From: Candidatus Cloacimonadota bacterium
GTDB lineage: Bacteria > Cloacimonadota > Cloacimonadia > JGIOTU-2
Direction: 5' to 3'
DNA length: 64,000 bases
Assembly: GCA_049903315.1 (NCBI GenBank)
Contig: JBNGBT010000003.1
Span: forward strand, 128,001 to 192,000
The notes under the pieces were generated by a model, which had not been told where the DNA came from, ran no database searches, and worked only from the letters and a program-made list of their open reading frames with translations. The translations under genes were made by a program, and so were the position numbers. The first letter of the stretch is position 1; each line of letters starts with the position of its first letter. This document shows positions 23,923-63,248 of the stretch, in pieces.

Positions 23923-24010
23923 ACGAACCTCCTATTTTAAGCTTTAAATGAAATACTTATTTGTAAAATGAGCTGTCAATTTATTTGGGAAATTTGTGAA
24001 AATAGAATAA

Positions 24011-24412
24011 TTATCTAAGCATTTTTTTCCATTTTGAATATATCTTCCTTGATAAGTTTATTGTGTGACATGATAAACCCAATGTTGTAATAAATATTGC
24101 AAAATACATTAGTTTTACAGCATTATAGTTTTTATAGGATTTTAGACCAATTGATATAAGACTATCTATAGCTTCTATTAAAATTTTTATAAAATCTGGT
24201 AAAAGTATGAGAGTTAAAATGGAGGTAGCTAACGCTAAAGGTAAAGCACGAGTATGATACACCGTCGATGCGGTCTTGATTGATTTTTTTCTGTCCTCTA
24301 AATGCTCTTCAGGTATTAAATCTATCGTTTTTTTGATTTCATTATACCAAGAACTATATAAAAGACCAATAACCGCTAAAAATAAACTTGAAGCAGATAA
24401 TAGATCATTCAT
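24011..24412 (-). CDS. Small membrane protein (about 3 TM), unknown function
   Basis: 133 aa with three hydrophobic segments; starts 1 nt after the upstream gene stop; AT-rich. Confidence 0.65.
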   Translation of the reverse strand: MNDLLSASSLFLAVIGLLYSSWYNEIKKTIDLIPEEHLEDRKKSIKTASTVYHTRALPLALATSILTLILLPDFIKILIEAIDSLISIGLKSYKNYNAVKLMYFAIFITTLGLSCHTINLSRKIYSKWKKMLR

Positions 24413-24413
24413 T

Positions 24414-24998
24414 TCATCCTTTCAATTTAGATTTCACTCCAAACTCCTTACATAATTCATTATATGATGACGGCTTAAATGTGTAGACGGATACGCTGCC
24501 TTGTTTTTTTCGAACAGGTGGAAGGCTTGAATTAATCTGAATAAGTCTTTTGTTGAACTCATCGACAAGATTTACATTATGAATACCTACTGATAATTCA
24601 TTCTTCTCATTATTAATTTTAACTGATTCAATCAACAACTTTAAAGTATTATTTATTTCGTCTTGTAATAAATACTGATACTTGGACATAACTGCACGAA
24701 TAAGAGATCTGCTATTAGTAGATGTCATTTGAAATAAACGACAAACTCTTTGTTCGTCTGGAATTAGTCCAGAACAAACATTTTTAACAAGTAAATAAAG
24801 TCTATATTCAAGAATGTCGGAACCTCGACTAAAGACTTTTTGACCTAAAAACATTGTAACAAATTCAGTTAAGGCAGTTTTAGAATATTGTTTTAATCTG
24901 TTCTCTAATTCAGATTCTTGACAACCAATTATTTTTGATAACTCTATAATGTCTACTCCATTTAGATTAAGTTTAGTTTCGATTGTTAATTCAGGCAT
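24414..24998 (-). CDS. Hypothetical cytoplasmic protein (possible HTH-like segment)
   Basis: 194 aa, GGAGGAG RBS; segment PDEQRVCRLFQMTSTNSRSLI resembles an HTH. Confidence 0.7.
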   Translation of the reverse strand: MPELTIETKLNLNGVDIIELSKIIGCQESELENRLKQYSKTALTEFVTMFLGQKVFSRGSDILEYRLYLLVKNVCSGLIPDEQRVCRLFQMTSTNSRSLIRAVMSKYQYLLQDEINNTLKLLIESVKINNEKNELSVGIHNVNLVDEFNKRLIQINSSLPPVRKKQGSVSVYTFKPSSYNELCKEFGVKSKLKG

Positions 24999-25009
24999 AT
25001 CTCCTCCAA

Positions 25010-25906
25010 TTATTTATTTTCTCTTTTTATTAAACCCTTAAAACTTAATAGAACAAATTGCGATAAAGTTAATGCTAAGTTCCTTAATAGTCTTGCTTGA
25101 TCACTTTTAGCCATATAAGGATGACCACCTGTATGACTAAGCAGACCATATAACTTTGCTATTGCTTCTTTTTCTTTGGTTTCAATTATTTTTTTTGCTT
25201 CAAGATAATCTCTTACTTTTTGCGGTTTTTCGAACAGAGTATTGGGTATTATTCCTTTTTCATTCTCATATATTACTTTTACAGTTTCTCTTAATACTGA
25301 TTCAAAAAATTTCCTCGAATTGGATATTGAATCATCCCACTTTTGATCAATAAAGTGTTGTTCAGATAAATCTAAATGATGAAAAGCAGTTTTTTGATTA
25401 CCTAGATTTAATTCTTCATATAAATTTTTTAATACTCCCTTAGCTTCTTTTATATCAATGGCATCAGATTCGGGTTTTTGTAATTTGCCATTCTGGAATA
25501 TATAACCATCCAATTCCAATGTTCTTTTCAAGCTATTAATTTGTTTATTATAAATAGTTTTTTCGGTTGAATTAAAAGTCGATATCTCTACTAAAGCATC
25601 TTCAGCAAGTTTTTCTAAATATTTAATGCCCAATAATTGTTTTTCTGATTCAGGATAATTTGGATACGCATCAGATATAGTCTCACCTGTGTGCAATCTC
25701 ATTACCCATTCTTGTATTGCCCTTTCACCATATAAATCTTTAATAGAGTTAAGAAACCACTCTTCGTAATCTGCCTTGTACAAAAAATCATAAAAATTCC
25801 CCTTATCAATTACTATTCTGTCATAATAAAAGCCGGTCGTATCTTTAGTGGTATATTTTTTCTCATAAAATTCAGCAATAGCAATGGCAGTTATTCTTGA
25901 TATCAT
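25010..25906 (-). CDS. Putative abortive-infection (Abi_C/AbiJ-like, HEPN-like helical) protein
   Basis: C-terminal HHLDLSEQHF...WDDSISNSRKFFESVLR...LYGLLSHTGGHP pattern resembles Abi_C-like domains; GGAG RBS. Confidence 0.55.
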   Translation of the reverse strand: MISRITAIAIAEFYEKKYTTKDTTGFYYDRIVIDKGNFYDFLYKADYEEWFLNSIKDLYGERAIQEWVMRLHTGETISDAYPNYPESEKQLLGIKYLEKLAEDALVEISTFNSTEKTIYNKQINSLKRTLELDGYIFQNGKLQKPESDAIDIKEAKGVLKNLYEELNLGNQKTAFHHLDLSEQHFIDQKWDDSISNSRKFFESVLRETVKVIYENEKGIIPNTLFEKPQKVRDYLEAKKIIETKEKEAIAKLYGLLSHTGGHPYMAKSDQARLLRNLALTLSQFVLLSFKGLIKRENK

Positions 25907-25961
25907 TTTAACTCCACGTTTTATTTTAACACATTCTATTAATTATGATATGTCACTAGAT

Positions 25962-26468
25962 TTATGATTCATTAAATAGTACACTTGGAACCTCTTCACA
26001 GAAAATTGGAAATAAAACATTAATAATTGTTTCAGCAGATAATGAACGAAGCTGAGGACTGAATCCCATTTCACCATAGTCAAGCCCCAACATAAATTTG
26101 CAAATTATAACAAATCTTTCTTGTAATTTCATCAACTCCCAACATATTTCTTCATTTGATGTGATTTCATCCAATATCATATTTGGAGTAATATATTTAT
26201 ATCTAATATTCAAACGTAATCTAGAAAATATTAAGGTAATCCAAAAATCATCATCTGATGTTTTAAACTTTTTTGAGATATCTTGCATCGTGTCGTACAT
26301 TGCAATGAGGAAACCTATATGATGGGATAATATTTTGATTATTATTCTTTTACTCATATCTTCAATTCCAAGTGTTTCACAAATTATTTTATCTTTATAA
26401 TATTTTGATGCAATTTTTCTTGGCAAAAAAACTGTACGCTTTAGATTGTTAAATAAACCTTTCATCAT
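25962..26468 (-). CDS. Hypothetical protein
   Basis: 168 aa ORF in AT-rich DNA, co-oriented with neighbours, downstream of repeat copy 1. Confidence 0.55.
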   Translation of the reverse strand: MMKGLFNNLKRTVFLPRKIASKYYKDKIICETLGIEDMSKRIIIKILSHHIGFLIAMYDTMQDISKKFKTSDDDFWITLIFSRLRLNIRYKYITPNMILDEITSNEEICWELMKLQERFVIICKFMLGLDYGEMGFSPQLRSLSAETIINVLFPIFCEEVPSVLFNES

Positions 26469-26535
26469 TCAGTCCTGTTTAAAAAATAAATCACTAATTG
26501 TTGCCGAAAAATTTATTTGAAATATTTCCATTTCT

Positions 26536-26610
26536 TTTTCACCTCAGTTTTTCCAATCATGGCATGTGTACGTTATGTAGAAAATTATATCACATGCGTC
26601 AAGAATTTTT
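26536..26610. repeat. Diverged direct repeat, copy 1 (contains minus-strand TTGACG)
   Basis: 26581-26610 AAAATTATATCACATGCGTCAAGAATTTTT matches 28664-28693 at 28/30; weaker similarity extends left (TTCCAATCAT.GCAT). Confidence 0.8.
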
Positions 26611-26779
26611 ATTGGTCATATTCTATGACATATATCCTATTCATAATAAGTGCTCTTCTTTTTTTAGTTTTTCATGAAAATATGTTTAGAAACAAAATCA
26701 TCCAGATTACGTAATGCTGTTCGATCAGAGATATTGCTAAGCCTTTGATATCTTGAGTTACATCAAATTTCCTAAAATA

Positions 26780-27901
26780 TTATAGAAATTCATAATGCAA
26801 TGGTTTATTATTTAAATCAATCTTAGAAAGCACCTCCTCTCTTTCACTATTCTCCATTTTATTAAAATTGTACAGCAGCTTATTTATAACATGATTTCTA
26901 CACTGTAGTTGACATTCATCATAATTACAACTTTTAATTATCTCCTTCCTAGCAGATGATGATAAGATTTCTTTCAAAGAGCTTTTATTTAGATTGCCAA
27001 TTAGAAAATTCTTATTGCCAATATGAGTACAACAGAAGTAAACATTAAAATCATGACCGATAGAAGCAGTAAAATTGCCACCTGGGCAACCAGTATATTG
27101 CTTATAAACTTTATTTAAATAATATTCATTAAATTTATTAATATTTGGAACAACATTAAAAGTAGAGTTACTATAACATCTTTTTAGATGTTCCAAAAAA
27201 GATTTTTGTTTTTGATAAAATGAATAGTTGGGTTTGAACGGTTCATTGGGTACATTATCAACTGGTCTTATTTGTAAAAAATCAATACCCAATTTTGAAA
27301 AGATCTTAACTGTATTTTCAATATCCTTCCTTGTTTGGTCGTACCATACAATGTGCAGTCCTATTAGTATTGATGATTTTTGTTGCTTTTTCATATCAAC
27401 TATTTTTTCAATGTTTCTTAGTATTTTAGGCAAATCTATTTTCCCAGGTTTTCTAATTTGTTTAAATACTTCAGGATTAACCGAATCAAGGCTTATCCTA
27501 CAAAATTTTGCATTATTAATAATAGCCCGGGTATTGTCTTCTGAAAAATTTGATCCATTAGTTAAGACACCAACAGACAACCCCTTTTTCTTAGCATGGG
27601 TAATTGCATAAGGTAGCCAAGGATTTAATAGTGGTTCACCTCCACCAGTAAAAGTTATTGCCATAGATATTTCAGCGATTTGATTTATCACAGAGGTTAT
27701 TTGAGCCCTACTCAGGCTGGCTTTACTCTGGAATGGCTTGCTACAACAATATACACAGTTTTGATTACAAAATCCCGTCAGGGATATTTCAAAAACAATA
27801 GGGTATACTAATTCATTATTCAAGAACTTTCTCAATCTATCAGTATGATAAAATATTTTTTCTTGAGAAAATTGATTTTTCGATAATCTAACTTCTTCCA
27901 T
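26780..27901 (-). CDS. Radical SAM protein with C-terminal SPASM/twitch domain
   Basis: CNQNCVYC, TGGGEP, LTNGS, RISLDS; C-terminal CPGG...VYFCC...IGNL...C...C...C. Confidence 0.9.
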   Translation of the reverse strand: MEEVRLSKNQFSQEKIFYHTDRLRKFLNNELVYPIVFEISLTGFCNQNCVYCCSKPFQSKASLSRAQITSVINQIAEISMAITFTGGGEPLLNPWLPYAITHAKKKGLSVGVLTNGSNFSEDNTRAIINNAKFCRISLDSVNPEVFKQIRKPGKIDLPKILRNIEKIVDMKKQQKSSILIGLHIVWYDQTRKDIENTVKIFSKLGIDFLQIRPVDNVPNEPFKPNYSFYQKQKSFLEHLKRCYSNSTFNVVPNINKFNEYYLNKVYKQYTGCPGGNFTASIGHDFNVYFCCTHIGNKNFLIGNLNKSSLKEILSSSARKEIIKSCNYDECQLQCRNHVINKLLYNFNKMENSEREEVLSKIDLNNKPLHYEFL

Positions 27902-28565
27902 TCGTCTCTATTTTCCAACTATTATCAATTGCTTTGTTTGCTTTCATATCATATTTTATAGTATAAAATCTATGTAGTAAAAGAATAATAATGGGCGGAA
28001 AAGATAATATATATATATATAAATCTTTAAAACTAATAGTATTTAATAAAAAATATGATAATATAATTAGTAAAACATATATATATAAAATGATAGTAAA
28101 TAATATAAAGAAGTTCAATATGGTACCCATTCCAACCTTTGTCGCTAATTTATTTGCATAAAAAAAATTTTCAATTTTATCAGTAGATACTTCATTTATT
28201 TCTAAGATAACACGCCGCAGAAAATTCATTCTGCTAATGTATAGCCTGTGAGTATAATTACCTCTTACATTATAAAAGTAAACACATGATGCAAATCCTA
28301 TTAAAAAAATAACCGTTATAAAAAAAATGGGGAAAATAATGTTATTTGTTTGAATTACATCTTTACTATTTAAAATATCTTCAATCTTACTAAATTGATT
28401 TGCTAAAAAAAATAGAGATGCAGATAATATTGCCGCTACTAAGGCTGTGTAAATCTGAACTATAAATTGTATCTTTTTATCTGTTGATTCTAATTTGGCT
28501 GATGTATCCTTGAAATCTTCAATTAAAAAATCTATAATACCTTGCCCAGTATCTGTTCTATTCAT
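27888..28565 (-). CDS. Four-TM membrane protein of unknown function
   Basis: Four hydrophobic segments, extremely AT-rich; GGAGG RBS before MNRTD; 14-nt overlap with the radical SAM gene. Confidence 0.7.
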   Translation of the reverse strand: MNRTDTGQGIIDFLIEDFKDTSAKLESTDKKIQFIVQIYTALVAAILSASLFFLANQFSKIEDILNSKDVIQTNNIIFPIFFITVIFLIGFASCVYFYNVRGNYTHRLYISRMNFLRRVILEINEVSTDKIENFFYANKLATKVGMGTILNFFILFTIILYIYVLLIILSYFLLNTISFKDLYIYILSFPPIIILLLHRFYTIKYDMKANKAIDNSWKIETNGRS

Positions 28566-43842: not shown

Positions 43843-47953
<4,111 letters not shown>

Positions 47954-47954
<1 letters not shown>

Positions 47955-49246
47955 TATTCACCTCCCTTAGTTCCAAGTGCCATTGAAACGATTTTTGTCA
48001 TATGTGTTTCCGGACCATACACTTCTGTCGGAATACCGATTCTTTTACCCATATCTTTCATGTTTTTAAGACCTTCTTTATAATTTGGTCCACCTCTTCT
48101 CACATAGATTTTTACATTGGTGTCTTTTAGTTTGTCTTTATATTCTTCGATTGCCTGGATAATTCCAGTAAATGTTTTTGCAATATCAGTAAAGTTAGCA
48201 ATGCCACCACCAATGATCAAAAACTTAGGACGTCCCTGAGGATCCTTTTTTCGAGTCATCAGATCAAGAACTGTTTTTGTGTATCCGTAAGTGAGTTCTG
48301 TGGATGGATTTCCACTATATTCTCCATAATTTGCAAGTTCATTTGTAAATCCGAGATCTACTACTGTATCAGCATAAATTACAGATGCTCCACCACCGGC
48401 CACCAGGTTCCAAATTCTTCCTTCAGGATTTAGAACTGTAAGTTTCAGCGATGCGCCTGTTCTTTCATCAAGTTCATCTACTTTCTCTTCTTCAGGAGAT
48501 TTTTCAAGGCCAAATGGGCTTGGGAATTTTAGATCTCCCCACATTTCTGCGCATTGGAATGATGCATAATCATCAATTTTTGCTACAGCATCCAGTGCTA
48601 CAGGTGTTCCGTTCACAAACGTGAAGGGATTCAATTCCAGATAAACAAAATGATACTCAACTACCATTTTATAAAGAGCTTTAATAAACTCAGCAATGAT
48701 ATCGGATTTTTTCCCAAGCTCTTTTGGTAAAAAATCTTTCACGTCAAGCTCATCAATTTCTGCAAATAATGGGACATCCATTGTTACTACAGAATCCCAA
48801 ACCTCTTCTATATTAACACCACCTTTTGTTGAGAAGTGAATTGTGTCACTCTCTCTTTTGGTGGTAATTGCTATGTAATATTCATCATCATGAGGGACGA
48901 ACTTTTCTACGAGAAAGTAATTTAATTCCCCTGTTGTTGTACCTGTTGTTTGAGTTATAGTAACAGTTTTATTCATACGTTCATTTATCCAGTCCTTTAC
49001 GTCAGACCAGGATTTATTCACAAATAAAAGATTGTTCAATCCTCTTTTTCCAAATAGCTGATCCGGCTTTACAACCAGTTTTTCGTCTTTTAGCCAGGAA
49101 TTTTCTTCCTCTAATTTTTTCAGATCAGTATTTGCTCCGATCAAAACCTGTTTCGTATCAAATTTGATCTTTCCATCAGAAAATTTTGGTAACGCCTGAG
49201 ACATCATTCTTTTAGCGTCATATTCTCGAATACCTTTTTGTGCCAT
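47954..49246 (-). CDS. aclB: ATP-citrate lyase, small subunit (ATP-grasp, CCS-beta)
   Basis: IREYDAK, VVKPDQLFGKRG, ELNP, VAGGGASV, ANYGEYSGNP, GGGIANFT, VRRGGPNY. Confidence 0.95.
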
Positions 49247-49273
49247 ATTATATCCTCTCTATAATTGCCTATT

Positions 49274-51235
49274 TTATTCTTTAATGTTAGTCTGCTTTTT
49301 TTTTATTAATGCAAGGGTTCCACCTGCAAGCAGAATTTCTTTTTGTCGATCAGACAGATCATACGTTGTTTCAAACTCTGTTCCTTTTGATACGTTCTTA
49401 ACAATTATGTTCTTACCTTCTCGTAATGTTTCTTTTATATTTGGAATTTCAAGTTCATCCGCTTGTTCTATTTCATTGTAATCATCTTCATTTTTGAAAT
49501 TTAACGGAAGTATGCCAAAATTGATGAGGTTTGCATTGTGAATTCTTTCCATAGACTTTGCAATAACAGCTTTCACTCCCATATACATCGGGCAAAGTGC
49601 GGCATGTTCACGGCTGCTTCCCTGACCATATGAAAGTCCTGCAACAATAATATTATCTTTTCCGTTTTCTTTGATTTCTTGTGCGCGATCATGAAATGTA
49701 GGATCAACTACTTCAAACAAAAATTCAGAATATTTTGGGATGTTTGATCGATACTTCATTTTCGACCCGGCAGGTATTATGTGATCTGTTGTGATCAGGT
49801 CTCCTACTTTCAAAGTTACAACACCGGATATTTTATCTTTAAGTGGTTCTGCTGCTGGAGGATCGCCAATATTTGGGCCACGATAAATCCCCATCTCTCC
49901 CTTAATTGATTCAGGGAAAATGAACATGGAGTCATCAATATAAAATTTGTCCGGCATTTTAATTCTAGGATATTCAATTTCTATTTTCTCAAGATCTCTC
50001 GGGTCTGTAAATTTGCCTGTAATTACAGCGGCTGCTGCAGTTTCAGGACTCACCAGATATACATCTGCAGATTTTGTTCCTGATCTTCCAAAGAAGTTTC
50101 TGTTACTTGTTCTAAGTGATACTGCGCCTGTTTTAGGAGATTGACTGTTACCAATACAGAAACCACACGCAGATTCTGCGATTCTTGCGCCTGCCGAAAC
50201 AATGCTTTCAAAACCACCATCATGTATGATATTTTCAATTACCTGTTTTGAACCGGGTGCTACTACAAAGCTTGTATCTTTACTTAGTTTTTGATCCTTT
50301 AAGATATTTGCTACAGTCATCATATCTTTGTAAGAAGAATTAGTACAACTTCCTATACAGACTTGATCAACATTAATCTCACCGATATCTTTTACAGTGC
50401 TGATATTTCCGGGACTATGTGGAGTTGCTGCCATTGGAACAAGCTCGGAAAGATCTATATCAACAACTTTATCATATTCTGCATCATCATCAGCGACTAG
50501 TTCCAGCCAGTCATCTTCACGGTCTTGGGCTTTTAAGAATTCTTTTGTGACTTCATCACTCGGGAAAATTGATGTTGTTACTCCGCATTCAGCCCCCATG
50601 TTTGTGATCGTCGCTCTTTCGGGAACGGATAGTGTGCTTACTCCAGGTCCACCATATTCAAATATACAACCCACATTTCCTTTAGTTGTAAATATTTCAA
50701 GAACTTTTAGTATTATATCTTTTGCTGCAATCCAAGGATTTAGTTTTCCCATTAAATTTATTTTTATAATCTTTGGATAAGTTATATAGAATGGACCGCC
50801 AGCCATTGCCACTGCCACATCAAGACCTCCGGCACCGATTGCCATCATTCCGATCCCACCTCCGGTCGGAGTATGCGAATCTGAACCAAGAAGAGTTTTG
50901 CCAGGTTTGCCAAATCTTTCAAGCTGAACCTGGTGGCAGATTCCGTTCCCAGCCCTGGAATAAACGATTCCATATTTTGCTGCAACAGATTGAAGGTATT
51001 TATGATCATCTGCATTTTCAAAACCGATTTGAACAGTGTTATGATCAACATAACTTACAGAAAGATCGGTTTTCACTTTTGGAACACCCATCGCTTCAAA
51101 TTGCAAATAAGCCATAGTACCGGTAGCATCTTGTGTAAGTGTTTGATCGATCCTGATACCTATTTCAGTACCTTTTTCTGGCTTTCCTTCGATAATGTGA
51201 TTTGATAAGATTTTTTCTACTATGTTTTTTCCCAT
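49274..51235 (-). CDS. acn: Aconitate hydratase (short ~650 aa type)
   Basis: TQDATG, DHN, GICHQ, GSDSHT, IGSCTN, ACGFCIG, TSNRNF, ITTDHI, YGQGSSREHA. Confidence 0.93.
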   Translation of the reverse strand: MGKNIVEKILSNHIIEGKPEKGTEIGIRIDQTLTQDATGTMAYLQFEAMGVPKVKTDLSVSYVDHNTVQIGFENADDHKYLQSVAAKYGIVYSRAGNGICHQVQLERFGKPGKTLLGSDSHTPTGGGIGMMAIGAGGLDVAVAMAGGPFYITYPKIIKINLMGKLNPWIAAKDIILKVLEIFTTKGNVGCIFEYGGPGVSTLSVPERATITNMGAECGVTTSIFPSDEVTKEFLKAQDREDDWLELVADDDAEYDKVVDIDLSELVPMAATPHSPGNISTVKDIGEINVDQVCIGSCTNSSYKDMMTVANILKDQKLSKDTSFVVAPGSKQVIENIIHDGGFESIVSAGARIAESACGFCIGNSQSPKTGAVSLRTSNRNFFGRSGTKSADVYLVSPETAAAAVITGKFTDPRDLEKIEIEYPRIKMPDKFYIDDSMFIFPESIKGEMGIYRGPNIGDPPAAEPLKDKISGVVTLKVGDLITTDHIIPAGSKMKYRSNIPKYSEFLFEVVDPTFHDRAQEIKENGKDNIIVAGLSYGQGSSREHAALCPMYMGVKAVIAKSMERIHNANLINFGILPLNFKNEDDYNEIEQADELEIPNIKETLREGKNIIVKNVSKGTEFETTYDLSDRQKEILLAGGTLALIKKKQTNIKE

Positions 51236-51510: not shown

Positions 51511-52182
51511 TTATTGTTTTTTATTAATTTTTACAACATTTCGTAAAATATACACAAATATAAAAATTCCGATTGCATTCCCGAGCACCATCGGCAGTAT
51601 GATCTCTTTCACAAGCGCAATAGAATTTGCATAAGGTTTTGAGAGGAGCAGTATGAGGATCATATGGAAAAGCTCAAGGCATACAACAACTGTTATTGCC
51701 ATCCAGTAGGACAGGGATTTTTTAAAGGATTTAGAAACAAACCCCGCGATAACTCCTGCGAGAAGAGTTGCAAGAGAGCAGGGAAGTTGAGTAAAACCCC
51801 CTAAAAGAAAACGGTGCAATCCAGCCAGGAATCCTGTGATAATGCCAATGATAGGTCCACCGATAAAGCCCGCAATAAAGGGAGCTGTATCGCGGATATT
51901 CGATATTGCTCCAACAACCGGAATCCCTAGAGTCGTGCCATAGATGCCAATAATTACAAAGAGGATTATTGTTCTTGCCGAATCCCAGGCAGTTGCTTTT
52001 TCTAAAAATACATTTTTAAAGGTTTCACTTTTACTGAAGAGGAAGAATATAAACATTACAAGCAGACTTTCCTGTAGTAGACTATACACAGATTTCAGGA
52101 TCGCTACGCTTTTTACTGGCGCAGCATTGAGCGTCGTCGCGCACATAATGAGCAAGAATAAAACAAAGATTAGTTTTCTCAT
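51511..52182 (-). CDS. Stand-alone 5TM-5TMR_LYT membrane sensor domain
   Basis: GIYGT, SNIRD, AGFIGGP, AGLHRF, ELFHM, PMVLGN parallel the N-terminus of 34978-36324; no output domain. Confidence 0.85.
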   Translation of the reverse strand: MRKLIFVLFLLIMCATTLNAAPVKSVAILKSVYSLLQESLLVMFIFFLFSKSETFKNVFLEKATAWDSARTIILFVIIGIYGTTLGIPVVGAISNIRDTAPFIAGFIGGPIIGIITGFLAGLHRFLLGGFTQLPCSLATLLAGVIAGFVSKSFKKSLSYWMAITVVVCLELFHMILILLLSKPYANSIALVKEIILPMVLGNAIGIFIFVYILRNVVKINKKQ

Positions 52183-52193
52183 TTCGGACCTTT

Positions 52194-53402
52194 CTATTTG
52201 CTGTTTATTGAATGATTTTCTTCATAGAATGTTAGATTTGATGTCCACTCATAAGACCCATCCATTTCTTCTATTTTCCAGAAATCGTAGTTGCCGAATT
52301 TTCTATCTCCGGCTTTGTTCAGCGCAGTCCAGCCGGTGCATCCATAATATGAATTTGCAGTGTGTATAAAGGCATTTGCGAGTTCTTTAGGCTTACCTTC
52401 TTTTGCTACAATATTGGATAATGCAGCCAGCCAGCATGCATCATAAGCTGCTAACACATAGGATGAGGGTGTTTCATTATATTTGTTTGTGATTTGCAGA
52501 TCAATAAAATGCGCTTTCTCAGTCTTATCAGGACTATACATCGGGCAGAGAAAATCTACAGCGATAGTTGCCTGAACTGCGATTGGGTTTTTTACAATCA
52601 AATCGTTTATGGCTGTTCCATCGCTTCCAAACCATCGCACACTCATAAGATTTGGATAATATGAAAGTGCTGTAAAAACAGGAACTGCTTCATCAAAAGC
52701 AAGGAAATATATACATAGTTCATTTGGCGAGTATGTTTTTAATGAATTTTTGACCAGATCGTCCAGCCGGCTTAAGTATTTATCAAAATTTACAGAAAGA
52801 GGATCAAAAGCAATACCTTCCACAAACTGAATCGGAGAAGTGCCGAGATATTCATCCATTGCATTAATGAGTCCCCTACCCCATGCATCATCCCGCCAAA
52901 ATGGGAGCACTGCCTTATACTCCATGTTCTTCATATATGTTGCTATTGCAATTGCCTGGTGATTATCATCAGGAATCAAGCGGAAGATAAAATCATTTTC
53001 AACTGCAAGGTCTGGAGCTGTGCTCTCTGTACTGATGACGATCATATCGTTCTCGTCCACAAAGGGTTTGATGGCGGAGAGTTCCGAACTTGCCTGAACA
53101 CCGATTATTGTTTTTATCCCTTTTGAATGCATCAACTTTGCCTTGCGCAATGCAACTATTGGATCTGTTTGAGTATCTTGAAATTCAATATGAAAGGAAT
53201 AGGATTTTCCTATGCAAGTTAGATAAGAGTTGATGTCCTTTTCGGCAATTTCGCATCCTACCTGTGCCGATTTTCCGAAGGAAGCAAGGTCTCCCGAGAG
53301 TGACAGAAACGCTGCGATAGTAATATCTTTTTCAGTAGAACATCCTGCAATAATAAGCAGGACTAAAATAAAGCTTAACGCAAAAAAAGTAATTTTTTTC
53401 AT
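52194..53402 (-). CDS. Branched-chain amino-acid-type (class I) periplasmic binding lipoprotein
   Basis: Lipobox IAGC, LSLSGDLASFG, STAPDL, FRLIPDD, AYDA. Confidence 0.88.
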   Translation of the reverse strand: MKKITFFALSFILVLLIIAGCSTEKDITIAAFLSLSGDLASFGKSAQVGCEIAEKDINSYLTCIGKSYSFHIEFQDTQTDPIVALRKAKLMHSKGIKTIIGVQASSELSAIKPFVDENDMIVISTESTAPDLAVENDFIFRLIPDDNHQAIAIATYMKNMEYKAVLPFWRDDAWGRGLINAMDEYLGTSPIQFVEGIAFDPLSVNFDKYLSRLDDLVKNSLKTYSPNELCIYFLAFDEAVPVFTALSYYPNLMSVRWFGSDGTAINDLIVKNPIAVQATIAVDFLCPMYSPDKTEKAHFIDLQITNKYNETPSSYVLAAYDACWLAALSNIVAKEGKPKELANAFIHTANSYYGCTGWTALNKAGDRKFGNYDFWKIEEMDGSYEWTSNLTFYEENHSINSK

Positions 53403-53424
53403 ATTAGTCCTTTCAATGATTTGA

Positions 53425-53757
53425 TTATTTTAGTTCCTCAATCGCCTCATCGATTGTATTAAAGATCGGAAAATCAGAATGGAAGTCAACAAGTTCAAGT
53501 ATATGAAGAATATCATCATTCACTCTGCAGAGCGCGATTACACCATTGCTGTTCAGTTCGCGAAGAGCATAGTAAAAGGCACGGATACCCGAACTGCTTA
53601 TATACTCAAGTTTTGAGCAATCAACAAGGATAGTATACTCTCCGTTAAGTATGTGTTTTATCAGAGTGTCTTGAAAATCCTTTGATGTGAATGAATCGAT
53701 TTTTCCGTCAACACTGATGATGCGTATATTCTTTTCCTTATTTGTCGTGATATGCAT
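53425..53757 (-). CDS. STAS anti-sigma-factor antagonist
   Basis: GKIDS, VDCSKLEYISSSGIR; start MHITT with GAGGAG RBS. Confidence 0.9.
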   Translation of the reverse strand: MHITTNKEKNIRIISVDGKIDSFTSKDFQDTLIKHILNGEYTILVDCSKLEYISSSGIRAFYYALRELNSNGVIALCRVNDDILHILELVDFHSDFPIFNTIDEAIEELK

Positions 53758-53761
53758 AAAA

Positions 53762-55834
53762 TTACTCCTCTCTATTATTGGCGAAATACTGGATAGCAAG
53801 CATTGTGATATCATCGGACTGTGGTGTCCCTTCGGCAAATTTATGAACCTCTTTTATTATCATTTTTAGAATTTCATTGGGTGCTGCATGAGATTGTGTT
53901 CGTAAAGTTTTTTCTAATTTATTTTCCCCAAACAGTTCATCCTTTGTATTTGCTGCTTCGGTAATGCCGTCTGTGTACAGGAATATACTTTGATGGTCTG
54001 ACAATGTCAGGTTTTCTGAAGTATATTCAACCTTTCTCCTTAGTCCAAGTGGTGTTTTATGAGGAAGTTCAATCAATTCTATTTGATCTTCTTTGAGCAA
54101 ATATGGAAGATTGTGTCCTGCACTCGTGAGTGAAATATGGCCATTTTTCACGTTAAGAATCCCAAGTAGAAGCGTGACAAACATGCAATGCTCATTATCC
54201 CTGTAGAGTTCTGTGTTCACTTCAGATATTATTTCAGAAGGAGACGGGATGCCGGATTGTTCCCTTTTGAGCAACATGCTGGTGGCACGTATCAGACTTT
54301 TACTTCGAGCCATGAAAAGAGCTGCAGGCACTCCTTTGTCTGATACATCTCCTATCAAAAAGCATAAGTGATCATCGTCGATAAAGAAGAAATCATAGAG
54401 ATCACCACCAACTTCTTTTGCAGGTTCGAGTAGTGCGTAAATATCAATCTCATTTCTGTCCGGAAAAGCGGGAAAGGCCTGAGGTAGCATGCTCATCTGA
54501 ATTTCATGAGCTATGCGGAGTTCGCTTCGGATTTTCTCGTTAGCCGCAGTGGTGAGTTTGAGATCGGTAATATATTGCTGCAGAGTTCTTTCCATGTTGA
54601 TAAAAGTTCCTGCAAGATGTCCCATTTCATCATGGGAGCTTCTCGTGAGATGAGTTAACTCGGCGGAATCAGTTATACCAAAATTGTTTTCCGTAAGTTG
54701 CCGTGCGTGTGCAGTAAGGGTTTTCACCGGTTTTGTGAAACGGTGAACTATAAAGAAAGTAACCATACTTGCTATAAGTAAAGCGGCTAATGTAATAAGG
54801 AGTTCTCTGTGAAAGATACGTCGCGAAGGCTCCTTCATTTCATCGATATAGAATGCAGATGCGATATACCAATAAAGTGGTTCAAAATAATCTACATATG
54901 CGATTTTTTTGAATTTTTCAGTTCCTTCGTACCCGGGTTTATTCCACAAATATATGTAGGGTTTATCCGGATTTTTTGATGCTTTAACAAGATGTTCCCA
55001 GTGGTCAATTCCCATTCCTGGCTCATCCACATCTGCAAAATCAACCCCTTCCATTGTAGGATGGACAAGAACGATATGGTTCTTATTAAAAATGAAAAAA
55101 TAACCATTCTCACCGATACGGATCTTTGAAAAGGTTTTTCGAAATTCGCTCAGAATTTCTTCAAGTTTGTTTTCAATATCCCTGTCAATATCATCGATAT
55201 AAACTCCCGTTCCGACTATCCAATTCCATGGCTTGAAATAGGAATTGTAGGATAGTTTTTCAACTGGTTTTGTTTCATCGAGACGGATATACCAAAAAGA
55301 CTCAAAACAACTCCCTGTTTTATACACATTATCCTTGATCATCTTAAGCGGATAGTTACCTTTCATATCCTGGTATTCTGTCATATTAGTGCCTTTAATA
55401 TTTGGATCGGGATGTGAAATTGCGACAAGATCTGTATTATAAATGTAAAAATAATCATTATTCCCATAGCGGAAATTTTCAACACTTCCCAAAGCAAATG
55501 CCTTTGCATCCTGCTCAGAAAGTATCCCCTTTTTATAAAGATTGTGGTAATATTCTATGTCTGAAATAACAAGCCCGGTGACGTTCTTGAGTTGCTCTTT
55601 GTATCGGTTTAAGGCATACTCTTTATGAAAAAGCAAGCTGCGATATTCATTTTCAACATACAATTTGATGAGCTTCCGCATATCATGAACTGAACCAGTA
55701 ATAGTATTCCACATGATTTTCTCGACTTCATACTGAGTGAGAAGCATAAATGCAACTGTTGTGCAAACAAGTATGACAAGAATGAGAAGGAGCATCTTTG
55801 TGGTAAAAGAAAGGGAGTGCAATGATATTTTCAT
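53762..55834 (-). CDS. Cache + HAMP + SpoIIE/PP2C membrane phosphatase
   Basis: Cache (RYGNNDYFYIY, WIVGTGVYIDD, GENGYFF), HAMP, EPAKEVGGDLYDFF, GDVSDKG, YTDG, SDDIT. Confidence 0.92.
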   Translation of the reverse strand: MKISLHSLSFTTKMLLLILVILVCTTVAFMLLTQYEVEKIMWNTITGSVHDMRKLIKLYVENEYRSLLFHKEYALNRYKEQLKNVTGLVISDIEYYHNLYKKGILSEQDAKAFALGSVENFRYGNNDYFYIYNTDLVAISHPDPNIKGTNMTEYQDMKGNYPLKMIKDNVYKTGSCFESFWYIRLDETKPVEKLSYNSYFKPWNWIVGTGVYIDDIDRDIENKLEEILSEFRKTFSKIRIGENGYFFIFNKNHIVLVHPTMEGVDFADVDEPGMGIDHWEHLVKASKNPDKPYIYLWNKPGYEGTEKFKKIAYVDYFEPLYWYIASAFYIDEMKEPSRRIFHRELLITLAALLIASMVTFFIVHRFTKPVKTLTAHARQLTENNFGITDSAELTHLTRSSHDEMGHLAGTFINMERTLQQYITDLKLTTAANEKIRSELRIAHEIQMSMLPQAFPAFPDRNEIDIYALLEPAKEVGGDLYDFFFIDDDHLCFLIGDVSDKGVPAALFMARSKSLIRATSMLLKREQSGIPSPSEIISEVNTELYRDNEHCMFVTLLLGILNVKNGHISLTSAGHNLPYLLKEDQIELIELPHKTPLGLRRKVEYTSENLTLSDHQSIFLYTDGITEAANTKDELFGENKLEKTLRTQSHAAPNEILKMIIKEVHKFAEGTPQSDDITMLAIQYFANNREE

Positions 55835-57820: not shown

Positions 57821-60454
57821 TTACGTATCTTCCTCTTTTGGGATCGGCAAATTCTCAGTTTCACAAATCTCTTTTAGTCTGGAAAACGACCATTCAGCCT
57901 GATAATTGAAGAAATAGCCATATGGTTTTTGGAGTATATCAATCAAATCCCGGGTATTAGTATCAGTATTTTTCTGGCTGTATGATTTAATTTTTTTTAA
58001 ATCCTTGTCGGAAAGTTTCAGCGTGATAAAAGTCAAAACATTACCCAGTTTTAGTTTGATATGTCCTAAACCGTCTTCGAGGATTTTTTTTCGAGCCCTG
58101 TTCACCTCTCTTTCGCCCACCTTATTTAAGACATTTGTATATTTTTCAAAAAGAATGTATTCATTCAGCATCTCTAAAATCAAATCATCGGAGAACGCGT
58201 TCCAGAATGCAACAGAGTGCTGCTGGCAGAGGAATCTGCCCAGCATGAATGAACCTGCCGTGTAACCCTGTAAATTTTTCTTTCTGCAAACTGGAATGAT
58301 CAACTTGAAAAGTGTGACCTTTCTATCCAAAGATAGAAGTTGATAGAGTTTGTGTTGATCTTGATGGCTTCCTAGTTCGCTTTGTAAGAGTTCCTCAATG
58401 TAAAAATCTGTATTGGAATCAAACCAGGAGTTCATGAGTTTTTTTGCTTTTTGGGGATCTTTCTGCAGGTTGTTTCTTACCAATTTTATCAATTCATCAA
58501 GTTTTACAATATGATCTACCTGCATATTTTCTATGAGTTGATCGTACACCTTGAATGCTTTCGCCATATTCTCGAATACTGTTCTTTCCTTCTTCTCCAT
58601 TTCCAGTTTTTCGCCGTTCAAATATCTTTGGAATCGAGCCGGCTTATAATCTGCTTGTCCACAAAAAATGGTCTGTCTTTTACTGGAAATCGTAATTTGA
58701 TCTCCCTCTGAGATTGTCATACCGTTTTCATTTACAAGATGATTTCCTTTTAGGGTAACACCAAATTTTTCCAGATTTAGAAAAGCGGGAACTCCATAAC
58801 TCCGGCAGGCAGTGACGACATGGATTGCAGCAGGGGTCAGGCTTACTATTGCATCAACCTCTGCCATAACCAGAGTGTCAGACGGAACGAAGCTTTCTCT
58901 GCATATGCAGACTTTTTCTCCTCGCTTTTTTGCTTCCATGGCAGCGGCTGCTGAAAAATATGCTTTTGCAGAAACTGCTGTTCTGGGCAAAATTGATACA
59001 CCTTTGCAGAAAAATTTCAATGTTTTGAATGATCTGTCATCGATTCTGTCTGAAAATATTTGTGTAAGATGATAGGGCTTGATCAACTCTATTACACGCT
59101 CGGCATCAATGACCTTTTTTTGGTAGAGATCAATTGCAGAAAGAAGAGTCGCTCTTCCAGTCAACTCGGAAGTGTTTAGCTGTAATACTGCAAAAAGATA
59201 TGCATCATCATAAGATTCCGCAGCAAATTCTACTGTCACCGGGGACTTTAATTTTTTCTCCAATTCCCGGAGTAGTGGCTCAAAATGATACACTGCCGGA
59301 TACATATTTTTAATAGATTCGCGATTAAAAAACTCATGATCATTCGTTTCGATGAGTCCGGTCATGATCTCTTCACCAAAAATATTCGGTAGACTCTCTA
59401 CTTGAATACCTAAACCAGTTCGGGCGTGACGGCTGTATAAAACGCCAGGATAAGATTCGTCTCCCCGTACAGTCCATACCATTTTTTGCAAAATAATTGA
59501 TGGGAATTTCTCACCTTTTCTTACAAATGTATGAAGTAAATCCTGATTTTTCTCAAAGTATTCATAAGCCCTTCGCAAGAAAAAACAGACCTGATAAAAG
59601 GCATCATGTAAAAGCCGTTCGTCTTGAACAGAAATGCGCTTGTAGTGATAGTCGATCTCCTCATCGATACGATCCACTTCGATATTTTGCTCTGTCTCAT
59701 ATCCTCCAAAGAGGTTCAGTTCGAGGGTTCGCAGATTACTCAGATATATTTTTTTTGCAACAGTTTTTCCTAAAATTTTACTGAGAACCGGAAAATTTTT
59801 GCTGGTCACACCCACATTTAAAAAGGTGGGCATCAAGCCGGGGATATACGAGGGCATCGCAGAGCGCATTGCAATGATAAGAGGTTTGTCTTCCGAACCA
59901 AACTTCTGGGCAGACATCTGCTCCAGATTTTTTATAGCTTTATAAATATTTGCCTTTCTTTCTTCCTGTGATAGAAAGTAATTGTTGGAAGTAAGTATGC
60001 AAAAATCCGGTACAGGATAACCCTCTTGAATAATATCCAGTAACTTAGTGCCCTTATGACTTATCAAATCTACATCAAACATATTTTGCGTGCAAGAAGG
60101 CACTATTGATTCATTTTCCACAAAATTTAAATTTTGAAATTCTCTTTGTCTCTCTGCGATAAAATCATGAATTTGGTTTGTTAACCTTTTGGCAGCTTCC
60201 ACATCCTGACGCGAGGAAAGAATATTTTCAAGAATATCATGTCTTGCAGGAGCTGGATTCATGCAAAGATACACGCTTTCGCAATCAGTCAGGACGAGTG
60301 AGCCCGATTCGCCTCCCATAAGTTGATAATCCATTTCCACTGGCAAATAACCAGGGAGATAGCATTTATCCTTATCAATATCTCCATTTAAGAATTGTTG
60401 TACCACATTGAAATTAAGATAATTTCCTCTAAATTTGAATGCCTTTAACACCAT
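57821..60454 (-). CDS. Pyruvate-phosphate-dikinase-like protein: ATP-grasp + phospho-His swivel domain, without the pyruvate barrel
   Basis: HKGTKL..GYPVP, AMRS..PGLM.TFLNVG, LQKMV, GEEIMTG, VEF, LQL, AIHVVTACRSYG, EGDQIT; no PEP-utiliser C-terminal motifs; GAGGAG RBS. Confidence 0.8.
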   Translation of the reverse strand: MVLKAFKFRGNYLNFNVVQQFLNGDIDKDKCYLPGYLPVEMDYQLMGGESGSLVLTDCESVYLCMNPAPARHDILENILSSRQDVEAAKRLTNQIHDFIAERQREFQNLNFVENESIVPSCTQNMFDVDLISHKGTKLLDIIQEGYPVPDFCILTSNNYFLSQEERKANIYKAIKNLEQMSAQKFGSEDKPLIIAMRSAMPSYIPGLMPTFLNVGVTSKNFPVLSKILGKTVAKKIYLSNLRTLELNLFGGYETEQNIEVDRIDEEIDYHYKRISVQDERLLHDAFYQVCFFLRRAYEYFEKNQDLLHTFVRKGEKFPSIILQKMVWTVRGDESYPGVLYSRHARTGLGIQVESLPNIFGEEIMTGLIETNDHEFFNRESIKNMYPAVYHFEPLLRELEKKLKSPVTVEFAAESYDDAYLFAVLQLNTSELTGRATLLSAIDLYQKKVIDAERVIELIKPYHLTQIFSDRIDDRSFKTLKFFCKGVSILPRTAVSAKAYFSAAAAMEAKKRGEKVCICRESFVPSDTLVMAEVDAIVSLTPAAIHVVTACRSYGVPAFLNLEKFGVTLKGNHLVNENGMTISEGDQITISSKRQTIFCGQADYKPARFQRYLNGEKLEMEKKERTVFENMAKAFKVYDQLIENMQVDHIVKLDELIKLVRNNLQKDPQKAKKLMNSWFDSNTDFYIEELLQSELGSHQDQHKLYQLLSLDRKVTLFKLIIPVCRKKNLQGYTAGSFMLGRFLCQQHSVAFWNAFSDDLILEMLNEYILFEKYTNVLNKVGEREVNRARKKILEDGLGHIKLKLGNVLTFITLKLSDKDLKKIKSYSQKNTDTNTRDLIDILQKPYGYFFNYQAEWSFSRLKEICETENLPIPKEEDT

Positions 60455-60596: not shown

Positions 60597-63236
60597 TTAG
60601 AAAATGATCGTATATGATGTTCCATTTTTCTGATTTAATTTTAATGTTCCATTCAGCTGGGAAATAAGATCCTGAATAAGCTGGAGCCCGAGTGAAGATT
60701 GACCGGCATTCTTAAGATCTTCAGTAAATCCTACTCCATCATCTCTAATTATGAGCTTATTTTTTCCTGCCTTGGTTTTTTTCATAGAGATGTACACTGT
60801 TCCTGTTTTGTCATCTGGAAATGCGTGTTTGAAAATATTGGTAAGTATTTCATTGCAGAGGAGTCCGCACGGAACCGCCTGGTTGAGATCGAGAGTAATA
60901 GGCTCTGCATCAATCTCAAAATTGATCTTGCTTTGCGGCATTCCCGTTGAACTAAACAGCGTATTGAATAATTCTTTTATATAATCTGCGAAATTGATAT
61001 CGATGAAATTCTCCGACTCATACAGCTTTTCATGTATGATTGCCATTGAACGTATCCTGTTCTCCACAATTTTAAACTTATCCACTATTGCTTCATCTTC
61101 GATATAAAGTGATTGTAAATGCAAGAGGCTGATGATGATCTGCATATTGTTTTTTACACGGTGATGGATCTCTTGCAGCATAACAACTTTTTCTTTCAAA
61201 GAATTTTCGACTTCGCGTTGGGAATTTTTTATGTCCGAAATATCCGCAAAAACCCCAAATGAGCCTACGTATTCATCATTTTCAAAAAGCGGTGTCGCAT
61301 TGATAAGCAAGGATTTTATTTCCTCATTATAGGTCTGGCATCGAATTTCGAATCTGTCCTGTTTGCCCTCCTTTCTTCTCTGGGTCTGAAACAGGAGTTG
61401 CTCCAAATCCTCTTTCAATATGACATTTTTTAGATTTGTACCTTTAAGGTCTTCGAAAGGTATGTCAAAAATAACTCCTGCTGCTTGATTTGCAAAAACG
61501 ATATTCTCATCTTCATCCACAAGCATAATACCTTCTTGCATTGTCTCGATGAGGTTTCTGTATTTTTCTTCGCTTTTCTGGAGCGCATTGAATATCTCTT
61601 TCTGTTCAGTACTATCTCGCTTGATCGCAACATAAAAGATGACGTTCCTGTCATGGTCCATAATTGGGAATGCTGAAATATCTATATAGAGATCTCGTCC
61701 GGCAGAGGTTTTCATATACGTCTCTGCACGGTAGAATTCATATTCGAGAAGCGCATCTCTCATTTCATTAAAATTTTCTTCACCCATATATACTGCAGGA
61801 GTTTCATCTTTAAGAGCTTCATTTGAATAGCCGAACAATTTTCTGTGAGAGGGGTTCTGTTCATAGAACGTAAAATCGGGTTTGATTATTTCGATGCTGT
61901 CAGTCGAGTAGTAAAAAACTTCTTTGAATAGTTGCAGGTTTTCTTCTGCTTTTGTTCTTTCATCGATGAGTTTATTGGCAGATTCTGCGATCGCCTGAAA
62001 TTCGGAAAAATGTACAGTGTCGGGCTGTATTTGTACATTTTCATTTTCTGCTTTTTGAAAGAATGCTACAAATGTTTTGAAATTATTCTTTAATTTTGCG
62101 GAGATATAAATAGAGGTATTTGCGATAATGACAACGATAAGAGCGAGAAGACCTATCACTTTTAGTATATGATTATTAATGCGTTCCCTTAATACGGTTT
62201 TTTCTTGAGCGATCAAGAATTCAATATCATCAAGATATACTCCTGCACCGATGATCCATTTCCATTCCGGCAAACCTTCAATGTATGAAATTTTAGGATG
62301 AGATTCATTGTCGTCGATTTTATTCCAACTATACTCTATAAAACCACTTCCCTGTTCCTCAACAATTTTCCGTTCATCCTGGATAATTTTCATACCCTCA
62401 CTATCGGTCAGGTTCCAGATATTCTCAGTTCCAAGTGTGATCGTGCCATTTGAAAAAAGAGGATCACCGTCGTAGGTAACTCCAAATATGTACCCATTTT
62501 CGCCAAACCGGACATTTGCCAGGCGTTCTATTGTAGAATATTTCAATTCTTCAATATAGCTTTCATAATAATCACCAAGTGCGATTATCCAGTCATAAGG
62601 TTCAAAATATTTGACGTATGTCAGTTTAAGATAAGGTTTTTTTGAAGGATCATTTGGGATTGGACGATAATACTCTATAAATCCTTCTCCCTGACTTTTT
62701 GCTTTTTTAATGTATTCGCGAACAAAATAAAAACCATTCACATCCCTTTGCTCCAATCGGTTATTGCCCTCTTCGGATTCAATAGGATTGTTGTTTTTAT
62801 CAGATTGAAGGAGAAGTGCAGTTCCATCACCAGCTGTCACCGAATAATATCCTCGACCATAATTTTGTTTAAGAGGACGCAATACCGAGAGTATAAGTTT
62901 TTTAAGCTCCTGCTCCGGCATGGAATATCTGTTTTCATAATAGAGGTGTTCTACGATATCATAACCCTGATAAAGCTGGGATCGTACCCGATTTCTTAAA
63001 TCTTCACTGGCTTTATTGATACTTAACGTAATAAATTCAATTGAGTTTTGGACCTCATATTTTATAATTTGTTTGTTCTTTTCAATAAATTGTTCGCGGA
63101 TATCATGTGTTGATTGATTGAACTGTATGTATTCCTGGGAAATAAGGAAATATCCAAGCATTGCTATAGAAATGGTCGTAACCAGCAGCATGCTTATAAT
63201 AAATAGTCTGGATACACTTCGAGCTTTTTTCTTCAT
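60597..63236 (-). CDS. Membrane sensor histidine kinase: 2x Cache, 2x PAS, HisKA_2 + HATPase
   Basis: EIHHRVKNNMQ H-box, NEILTNIFKHAF, DDGVG, SLGLQL; Cache motifs (GENGYIF, WIIGAGVYLDD). Confidence 0.92.
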   Translation of the reverse strand: MKKKARSVSRLFIISMLLVTTISIAMLGYFLISQEYIQFNQSTHDIREQFIEKNKQIIKYEVQNSIEFITLSINKASEDLRNRVRSQLYQGYDIVEHLYYENRYSMPEQELKKLILSVLRPLKQNYGRGYYSVTAGDGTALLLQSDKNNNPIESEEGNNRLEQRDVNGFYFVREYIKKAKSQGEGFIEYYRPIPNDPSKKPYLKLTYVKYFEPYDWIIALGDYYESYIEELKYSTIERLANVRFGENGYIFGVTYDGDPLFSNGTITLGTENIWNLTDSEGMKIIQDERKIVEEQGSGFIEYSWNKIDDNESHPKISYIEGLPEWKWIIGAGVYLDDIEFLIAQEKTVLRERINNHILKVIGLLALIVVIIANTSIYISAKLKNNFKTFVAFFQKAENENVQIQPDTVHFSEFQAIAESANKLIDERTKAEENLQLFKEVFYYSTDSIEIIKPDFTFYEQNPSHRKLFGYSNEALKDETPAVYMGEENFNEMRDALLEYEFYRAETYMKTSAGRDLYIDISAFPIMDHDRNVIFYVAIKRDSTEQKEIFNALQKSEEKYRNLIETMQEGIMLVDEDENIVFANQAAGVIFDIPFEDLKGTNLKNVILKEDLEQLLFQTQRRKEGKQDRFEIRCQTYNEEIKSLLINATPLFENDEYVGSFGVFADISDIKNSQREVENSLKEKVVMLQEIHHRVKNNMQIIISLLHLQSLYIEDEAIVDKFKIVENRIRSMAIIHEKLYESENFIDINFADYIKELFNTLFSSTGMPQSKINFEIDAEPITLDLNQAVPCGLLCNEILTNIFKHAFPDDKTGTVYISMKKTKAGKNKLIIRDDGVGFTEDLKNAGQSSLGLQLIQDLISQLNGTLKLNQKNGTSYTIIF

Positions 63237-63248
63237 ATTCAATATATT

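Follow-up and report, generated by a model that had tools for sequence, protein, structure and literature searches.

The ATP-grasp and swivelling phospho-histidine domains of pyruvate phosphate dikinase (PPDK) form a module that is found with more than one kind of acceptor. Glucan-water dikinase is one such reuse, with an acceptor other than a barrel. As described in the available parts of the source papers, the module also serves other acceptors in rifampin phosphotransferase (RPH) and HpeHI (PMC4844700, PMC12167813), and the mycobacterial protein VadK (Rv1127c), a PPDK derivative without a barrel, autophosphorylates its swivel histidine in an ATP- and Mg-dependent manner (PMC13400623). Here we report on a gene related to these systems, found in a 64,000-nucleotide stretch of a Candidatus Cloacimonadota bacterium genome (GCA_049903315.1, contig JBNGBT010000003.1, positions 128,001 to 192,000), referred to below as the window. 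Its product, P0001, joins a PPDK-like module to a C-terminal domain predicted to be entirely helical.

We conclude that P0001 represents a real, conserved and unnamed family, a variant among the phosphotransferases that carry a PPDK head. The family has a constant domain order, invariant ATP-site residues and two invariant histidines in separate domains, evolves under purifying selection and is independent of its neighbours. It is very probably an active histidine phosphotransferase of some kind. The reading that we favour, without considering it probable, is that of a stand-alone PPDK descendant and ADP-forming two-site enzyme, in which phosphate would pass from ATP to His545 and on to the helical domain, with a second site at His697. 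We infer autophosphorylation of His545 by analogy with PPDK, RPH and VadK.

Domain architecture and conserved residues

The first-pass annotation of this gene had proposed a likeness to PPDK in which the swivel histidine is kept, the regulatory threonine is lost and LQTR has become LQLN; all of this was borne out by alignment to the PPDK of C. symbiosum (1dik) and by profile comparison with hhalign. This enzyme is the best solved relative of P0001 (residues 129–606, phmmer E = 1.1e-23). Residues K134, R197, E409, Q425, N427, A543 and H545 are equivalent to K22, R92, E323, Q335, R337, T453 and H455, with AAIH545 aligned to MTSH455 and LQLN to LQTR (Q335-T-R337). A family profile aligned with 30 canonical PPDKs of the phylum over residues 128–609 (hhalign probability 99.6), a region in which P0001 is about 23% identical to PPDK, and nothing aligned beyond it. 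Among family models, the Pfam matches to PPDK_N (residues 167–370, 22 bits) and PEP-utilizers (515–589, 14 bits) were both weak and under cut-off, and the PPDK model TIGR01828 covered residues 129–613 at 135.2 bits, missing its curated cut-off of 843. In a quick tree built on the region common to PPDK and the family (41 rows), a long branch (support 100) separates six PPDKs from the 35 rows of the family.

The full-length AlphaFold2 model (111 sequences; pLDDT 84.2, pTM 0.72) comprises an alpha/beta N-terminus, an ATP-grasp domain, a swivel domain and, from residue 607 to 866, helices only. In structural comparisons with VIA, the ATP-grasp model matched 5hv6_B (Z 16.1, rmsd 3.1, 222 aligned residues) and the swivel model matched 2fm4 (Z 17.2, rmsd 2.0, 125 aligned residues). 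In the swivel loop, the G-G that precedes the histidine is gone, together with a one-residue deletion, and the loop reads S-x-x-P-x-A-I-H. The position of the regulatory threonine, A543, is Ala in 146 of 150 family rows.

Conservation was estimated from an alignment (A3) of 150 rows, 24–86% identical to the query and mostly close kin, in which counts refer to the rows covering a column. Within the ATP-grasp domain, K134 (133/133), R197 (133/133) and Q425 (137/137) are invariant and E409 is kept in 136 of 137 rows. Three histidines are invariant, namely H462 in the linker (142/142), H545 in the swivel domain (149/149) and H697 in the C-terminal domain (150/150). The latter domain also contains the invariant residues G695 (forming G695-x-H697), G739 and Y772 (150/150 each) and the near-invariant E765 (149/150), R740 (143/150) and K771 (142/150), to which E623, Y637, E781 and K813 can be added. 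The same residues are conserved in a separate alignment of 29 rows that reaches 23% identity. Mutual information over the 150 rows yielded contacts in which a handful of columns prevailed, and these are uninformative. H697 is the first residue of a predicted helix (697–706); in HPr, enzyme I and PPDK, the histidine that carries phosphate lies at the start of a helix. Neither this second histidine nor the loss of the G-G loop figured in the first-pass annotation.

The absence of the pyruvate-barrel motifs and their replacement by helical sequence, noted earlier, were confirmed. Three barrel motif patterns were found in none of the 150 family rows, a profile of the C-terminal domain gave no alignment with PPDK (hhalign probability 0.2), and the predicted domain consists of helices and is not a TIM barrel. 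Modelled alone, it reached a pLDDT of 83.2 and a pTM of 0.77 (AlphaFold2). Foldseek returned no match to this model at E ≤0.001 in PDB or BFVD, and VIA returned none at Z ≥8 over 48,161 chains; the best (Z 7.3) was in the range of common helical arrangements and the weak matches (Z ≤7.3) were mostly helical-repeat scaffolds. Neither an RPH chain nor an acceptor fold of the rifampin-binding type was among the best 50 VIA matches listed. The C-terminal sequence profile had a best E of 0.28 against PDB, and weak Pfam matches were obtained for no more than 12 of 52 members; no HPt or receiver domain was detected by Pfam or seen among the fold matches listed for the model. The predicted domain appears to be without a clear solved relative; it is possibly a new fold and may be a new type of phospho-histidine acceptor.

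The N-terminal 125 residues, already described as having no recognisable family, had no significant match in Pfam and PDB sequence searches. Only 4 of the 125 columns are conserved at ≥95%, and the domain is likely accessory. The protein is soluble, with 19-residue hydropathy peaking at 1.56. Coordinates are collected in Table 1.

Table 1. Features of the P0001 locus, in window coordinates.
Feature	Position	Strand	Basis or remark
PPDK-derived phosphotransferase gene, 877 aa (P0001)	57821..60454	-	Intact ORF; single copy in genome
N-terminal domain, residues 1-125, predicted alpha/beta	60080..60454	-	AlphaFold2; least conserved part
PPDK-type ATP-grasp and linker, residues 126-468; K134, R197, E409, Q425; invariant H462 in linker	59051..60079	-	Sequence/profile alignment, structure match, conservation
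Q425-L-N427, dikinase Q-x-R changed to Q-x-N/D, like E-x-N of ATP-grasp ligases	59174..59182	-	Alignment
Swivel domain (phospho-histidine), residues 469-610, with H545 at 58820-58822; A543 at regulatory Thr position	58625..59050	-	2fm4 match
Predicted all-helical C-terminal domain, residues 611-877 (267 aa), replaces pyruvate barrel; H697 at 58364-58366	57824..58624	-	AlphaFold2, conservation
Cache-PAS-HisKA_2 kinase, directly upstream	60597-63242	-	Pfam

Nucleotide chemistry and the proposed phosphate route

Position 427 is N in 129 rows, D in 8 and R in none of the 137 rows of A3. LQTR is present in 30 of 30 canonical PPDKs, and Q-x-R in three other PPDK_N proteins checked. In PPDK, Arg337 serves the beta-phosphate step, and its R337A mutation reportedly cripples the first half-reaction. 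The PDB title of 2dik is that of an R337A mutant PPDK, which shows only that the residue was studied; a literature search covering mainly open-access texts, without their supplements, found no paper on PPDK Arg337. "Dikinase", as the protein had first been tentatively called, is uncertain, since the Arg of Q-x-R is never kept.

When the ATP-grasp model was compared with carbamoyl-phosphate synthetase (CPS) using VIA, the aligned range ended with residue 430 facing residue 304. CPS reads E299-M300-N301, and Q425 would correspond to E299 and N427 to N301 if no gap is assumed over the last six aligned residues. D-Ala-D-Ala ligases carry the same E-x-N, the residues of which bind magnesium ions in ligases that use the gamma-phosphate. 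From this one motif, Asn427 is a hint of gamma-phosphate, ADP-forming chemistry. Succinyl-CoA synthetase and ATP-citrate lyase are ADP-forming ATP-grasp enzymes with a phospho-histidine.

The phosphate route that we propose would start with Mg-ATP bound by the ATP-grasp domain through K134, R197, E409 and Q425, all of which are in place. His545 would likely take the gamma-phosphate, because Asn427 occupies the place of Arg in dikinases and of the E-x-N Asn in ATP-grasp ligases; ADP would be released, and the protein would be a kinase, not a dikinase. As in PPDK and RPH, the swivel domain would then turn toward the C-terminal domain, where His697 would either take the phosphate or activate an acceptor in a putative pocket of E623, Y637, R740, E765, K771 and Y772. 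A soluble anionic metabolite would be the most likely acceptor, with the reaction possible in either direction. Without a Thr two residues before the swivel histidine, the protein would escape the PPDK regulatory protein (PDRP) encoded in the genome.

Several observations weigh against this proposal. The Arg-to-Asn change may leave the enzyme slow or inactive, and the equivalence between Asn427 and N301 of CPS comes from the ends of an alignment range, not from a residue-level superposition. Residues 543–545, around H545, have a pLDDT <50. According to the available part of PMC12167813, a glycine-rich T/SXXGGXXXH loop orients the swivel histidine, and its G-G is absent from the swivel loop of the family. 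R740 and K771 differ in distant members. In the loci scanned, no conserved neighbour points to a metabolite or an acceptor. The distribution within the phylum is patchy (23 of 232 genomes, 22 of them credible after removal of G155, whose match had an E of 7e-4 and six stops). Finally, a single in-frame TAG interrupts the gene in three of the 67 loci compared (the window, 3 genome and 63 metagenome loci), all from one distant lineage.

P0001 could instead be a true dikinase of the kind of RPH, glucan-water dikinase or HpeHI, in which His545 takes the beta-phosphate (with AMP and Pi or PPi as products) and the helical domain serves as a novel acceptor domain for small molecules. PPDK is its closest relative in structure, sequence and domain order, the equivalents of K22, R92, E323 and Q335 are present, and, from the available parts of the respective papers, RPH transfers the beta-phosphate (PMC4844700) and HpeHI releases mainly AMP (PMC12167813). 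Set against these similarities, the Arg of Q-x-R is missing in 137 of 137 rows, replaced by a fixed N or D, and the G-G loop is gone; we regard such a dikinase as unlikely, if still a serious contender. That the family has neither an Arg337 equivalent nor the G-G loop would also suit a catalytically silent, nucleotide-binding pseudokinase with a structural or sensing role, for which synapsin, a non-enzymatic ATP-grasp protein, provides a precedent (PMC3249071, available part). The persistence of H545 (149/149) and H697 (150/150) down to approximately 24% identity is hard to explain without chemistry, and a silent protein is very improbable.

Returning to the ADP-forming two-site enzyme, its most specific version holds that the PPDK chassis was rewired from beta-pyrophosphoryl (AMP-forming) to gamma-phosphoryl (ADP-forming) chemistry on regaining an E-x-N-type Asn, feeding an intramolecular relay from His545 to His697 in a new helical fold. 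Taken as a whole, this version is rather unlikely. If true, the rewired chassis would be the counterpart, in one chain and driven by ATP, of the relay from enzyme I to HPr, present in several phyla and mostly known from metagenomes. If the Arg-to-Asn change does make an ADP-forming kinase, what determines beta- versus gamma-attack in ATP-grasp enzymes would become directly testable.

Family distribution, selection and genomic context

A first homologue search yielded 977 matches among 7999 scored candidates, an unspecified share of which are ordinary PPDKs. Among the best 120 matches and the query, 117 proteins had at least 840 residues and were approximately 48–100% identical; those with names came from Cloacimonadota and Bacteroidota, and the named genome records closest to P0001 from Cloacimonadota. 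Searching 1.84 billion representatives with the C-terminal profile gave 113 matches, many of them fragmentary; P0262 and P0284, with 8 short repeated stretches apiece, were set aside as spurious. The 23 matches of at least 807 residues (22 of 807–921 aa and one of 1550 aa) all have ATP-grasp and swivel motifs upstream. We conclude that the helical domain travels with the ATP-grasp/swivel module, because all 23 aligned long matches have both. The 1550-aa protein (P0233, Spirochaetota) is a tandem copy of the entire ATP-grasp/swivel/helical module without the N-terminal domain; equivalents of H545 and H697 are present in both copies, and that of H462 is missing from one.

Other source names in the family are Terriglobales (Acidobacteriota), Spirochaetota, Margulisbacteria and Saganbacteria/WOR-1, and, as a lead, look-alike Atlas clusters of 877–883 aa occur most often in Acidobacteriota, Elusimicrobiota and Aminicenantota. 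Short proteins homologous to the C-terminal domain accounted for 59 matches, and the 12 that were read look like fragments; Atlas matches at 0.80–0.82 to proteins of 315–341 aa are leads only. No long fusion (1648–4705 aa) occurred among 3586 candidates, which is weak evidence. None of 46 pattern matches on viral contigs was confirmed as a family member, none of 28 plasmid records covered 80% of the protein, and no RNA holder of the gene was seen among the matches listed. Two other types of protein were recorded along the way. An ESM Atlas cluster of 759 aa with PPDK_N and PEP-utilizers and no barrel family is commonest in Uroviricota (phages), its membership in the family not being shown, and a Rhodococcus plasmid (L130, 342-5460) carries, close to a gene annotated as PPDK (835 aa), a stand-alone PEP-utilising gene of 138 aa.

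The literature search described above found no paper on the family either. The earlier suggestion of an undescribed phosphotransferase on a PPDK chassis is supported, as the C-terminus is not predicted to be a TIM barrel and the histidine and ATP-site residues are invariant. Databases leave the family unnamed or label it PPDK or PEP synthase, which may distort metabolic reconstructions of largely uncultured lineages.

The protein is under purifying selection. In comparisons with six close relatives (6/6 pairs), dN/dS was 0.03–0.07 for the ATP-grasp and swivel domains, 0.06–0.11 for the C-terminal domain and 0.15–0.31 for the N-terminus. A decaying PPDK paralogue could be suspected from the patchy distribution and from the in-frame TAGs, which lie at two different sites (L060/L061, 8421-8423; L083, 6264-6266). 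Kin approximately 90% identical to these loci are intact, the neighbours compared there have no TAG stops, and the TAGs may be independent nonsense mutations or amber read-through. With dN/dS at 0.03–0.11, a full-length ORF in 52 of the 67 loci (besides the three with TAG, most of the others seem to be cut by contig ends), a deep separate clade and ATP-site and histidine residues that are invariant in A3, the selection and conservation data refute decay, to which we assign practically no probability.

The genome of the window also encodes a full PPDK with a barrel and a TSH motif, as well as enolase, PGK, GAPDH, pyruvate kinase, enzyme I, HPr and PDRP. We conclude that P0001 provides an extra function and is not a substitute, because an intact PPDK is present there, along with pyruvate kinase, enzyme I, HPr and PDRP. 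Among family-positive genomes that are at least 85% complete, 15 of 16 have a PPDK above cut-off.

No cluster of neighbouring genes was common to more than 10 of the 67 loci, the larger clusters being restricted to close kin, and a Pfam scan of 84 of the 118 flanking cluster representatives revealed unrelated functions. Using the genome's own enzymes as queries, tblastn over 66 loci, which appear to cover the nearer clades only (at least 47% identity), detected no enolase, GAPDH, pyruvate kinase or enzyme I and a single PGK. In L072 (7234-10646), gpmA (dPGM) and the start of the family gene share 4 bases, and in the syntenic L093 (6398-10646) gpmA lies two genes upstream; a dPGM link was not upheld by co-occurrence (7/14 versus 15/48 of 62 genomes, p = 0.22). 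In both loci, a 990-aa receiver and PPDK_N protein that has Q-x-R and lacks the TSH motif is encoded convergently downstream of the family gene.

The first-pass annotation had also suggested a histidine phosphocarrier serving the upstream Cache-PAS-HisKA_2 kinase. The two genes are on the same strand, separated by 142 bases, and promoter and terminator counts in the region are at chance level, with no excess signal. This arrangement is confined to close kin: of the 49 loci that have an ORF upstream, 8 show the kinase directly before the gene, all of them relatives at least 85% identical; it is split in three of these into pieces of 255 and 152 aa (L002, L034 and L035, 6671-7859), is missing in L003 and L038 and is absent in a relative of 83% identity. 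Moreover, P0001 has an ATP site of its own, and the genome contains 9 tblastn matches to the catalytic part of the kinase. The proposed partnership is highly improbable. Nor is the kinase clearly an orphan, as had been stated, given a receiver-PAS gene two genes further upstream; a permease gene and a receiver-type gene were seen upstream of the kinase.

Elsewhere in the window, a beta-helix protein that carries FlgD-Ig and, at its C-terminus, a secretion-sorting tail is encoded directly downstream of the P0001 gene (56156-57751, minus strand). Encoded at 51511-55834 (minus strand) are a SpoIIE-type phosphatase with Cache sensors, a STAS anti-anti-sigma protein, a periplasmic binding protein and a lone 5TM-LYT protein; these partner-switch genes are common to close kin only. 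Positions 24001-28000 have a GC content of 0.29, against approximately 0.39 around them, and are possibly acquired DNA. At 43843-51235 (minus strand), the window encodes a monomeric NADP isocitrate dehydrogenase, two ATP-citrate-lyase-like subunits (615 and 430 aa) and an aconitase; the lyase label is our own reading, NCBIfam giving only sub-cut-off matches to succinyl-CoA ligase.

Close matches to the 430-aa subunit were found in 16 of 62 genomes. The family is present in 10 of these 16 and in 12 of the 46 others (p = 0.014), an association that is not robust to kinship, as p rises to 0.15 without the window's own genus. This co-occurrence bears on the idea that P0001 is a regulatory histidine kinase of the VadK kind, an ATP sensor that autophosphorylates and hands the phosphate from His545 via His697 to a protein, with a helical domain that binds target enzymes, possibly of citrate metabolism. 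VadK itself is a precedent (PMC13400623, available part), the gene stands alone with no substrate-pathway neighbours, and the weak fold matches of the C-terminal domain to helical-repeat scaffolds would fit a binding role. On the other hand, the kin compared are non-independent, 12 of the 22 family-positive genomes have no match to the lyase subunit, and several near-invariant polar residues resemble an active site more than a binding surface. We consider a VadK-like regulator quite unlikely.

Comparison with known systems

P0001 is functionally like PPDK, RPH, HpeHI and VadK and fails defining tests of each. With PPDK (EC 2.7.9.1; TIGR01828; 1dik/1kbl) it shares the ATP-grasp domain, linker and swivel domain in identical order, with equivalents of K22, R92, E323, Q335 and H455. 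It differs in having no pyruvate/PEP barrel, N or D in place of R337, Ala in place of T453, no G-G and an extra N-terminal domain of 125 residues.

ADP-forming ATP-grasp enzymes such as CPS and D-Ala-D-Ala ligase share the fold (Z 7–9), and Q425-x-N427 resembles their E-x-N. They are much more distant than PPDK and have no swivel domain, and the likeness is one of a single motif.

RPH and HpeHI/CreHI/PpsAB reuse the module with a non-barrel acceptor, as P0001 does (VIA, 5hv6_B Z 16.1 and 9goj_A Z 15.4). In RPH- and HpeHI-type proteins, the swivel domain is C-terminal and has T/SXXGGXXXH, according to the available part of PMC12167813, whereas in P0001 it is central (469–610) and without the G-G.

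VadK has the PPDK ATP-binding and histidine domains without the barrel, as P0001 does. By its description in the available part of PMC13400623, VadK ends without a replacement domain, whereas P0001 has a conserved helical domain with a second invariant histidine. VadK adjoins methylcitrate-cycle genes in the same description, and none were among the neighbours scanned for the P0001 family. Against NF004531 (534 positions), a model that we take to be of the VadK type, P0001 scored 105.5 bits where the cut-off is 456. Alongside VadK, RPH and HpeHI, the family presents the PPDK head as a reusable phosphate-delivery module.

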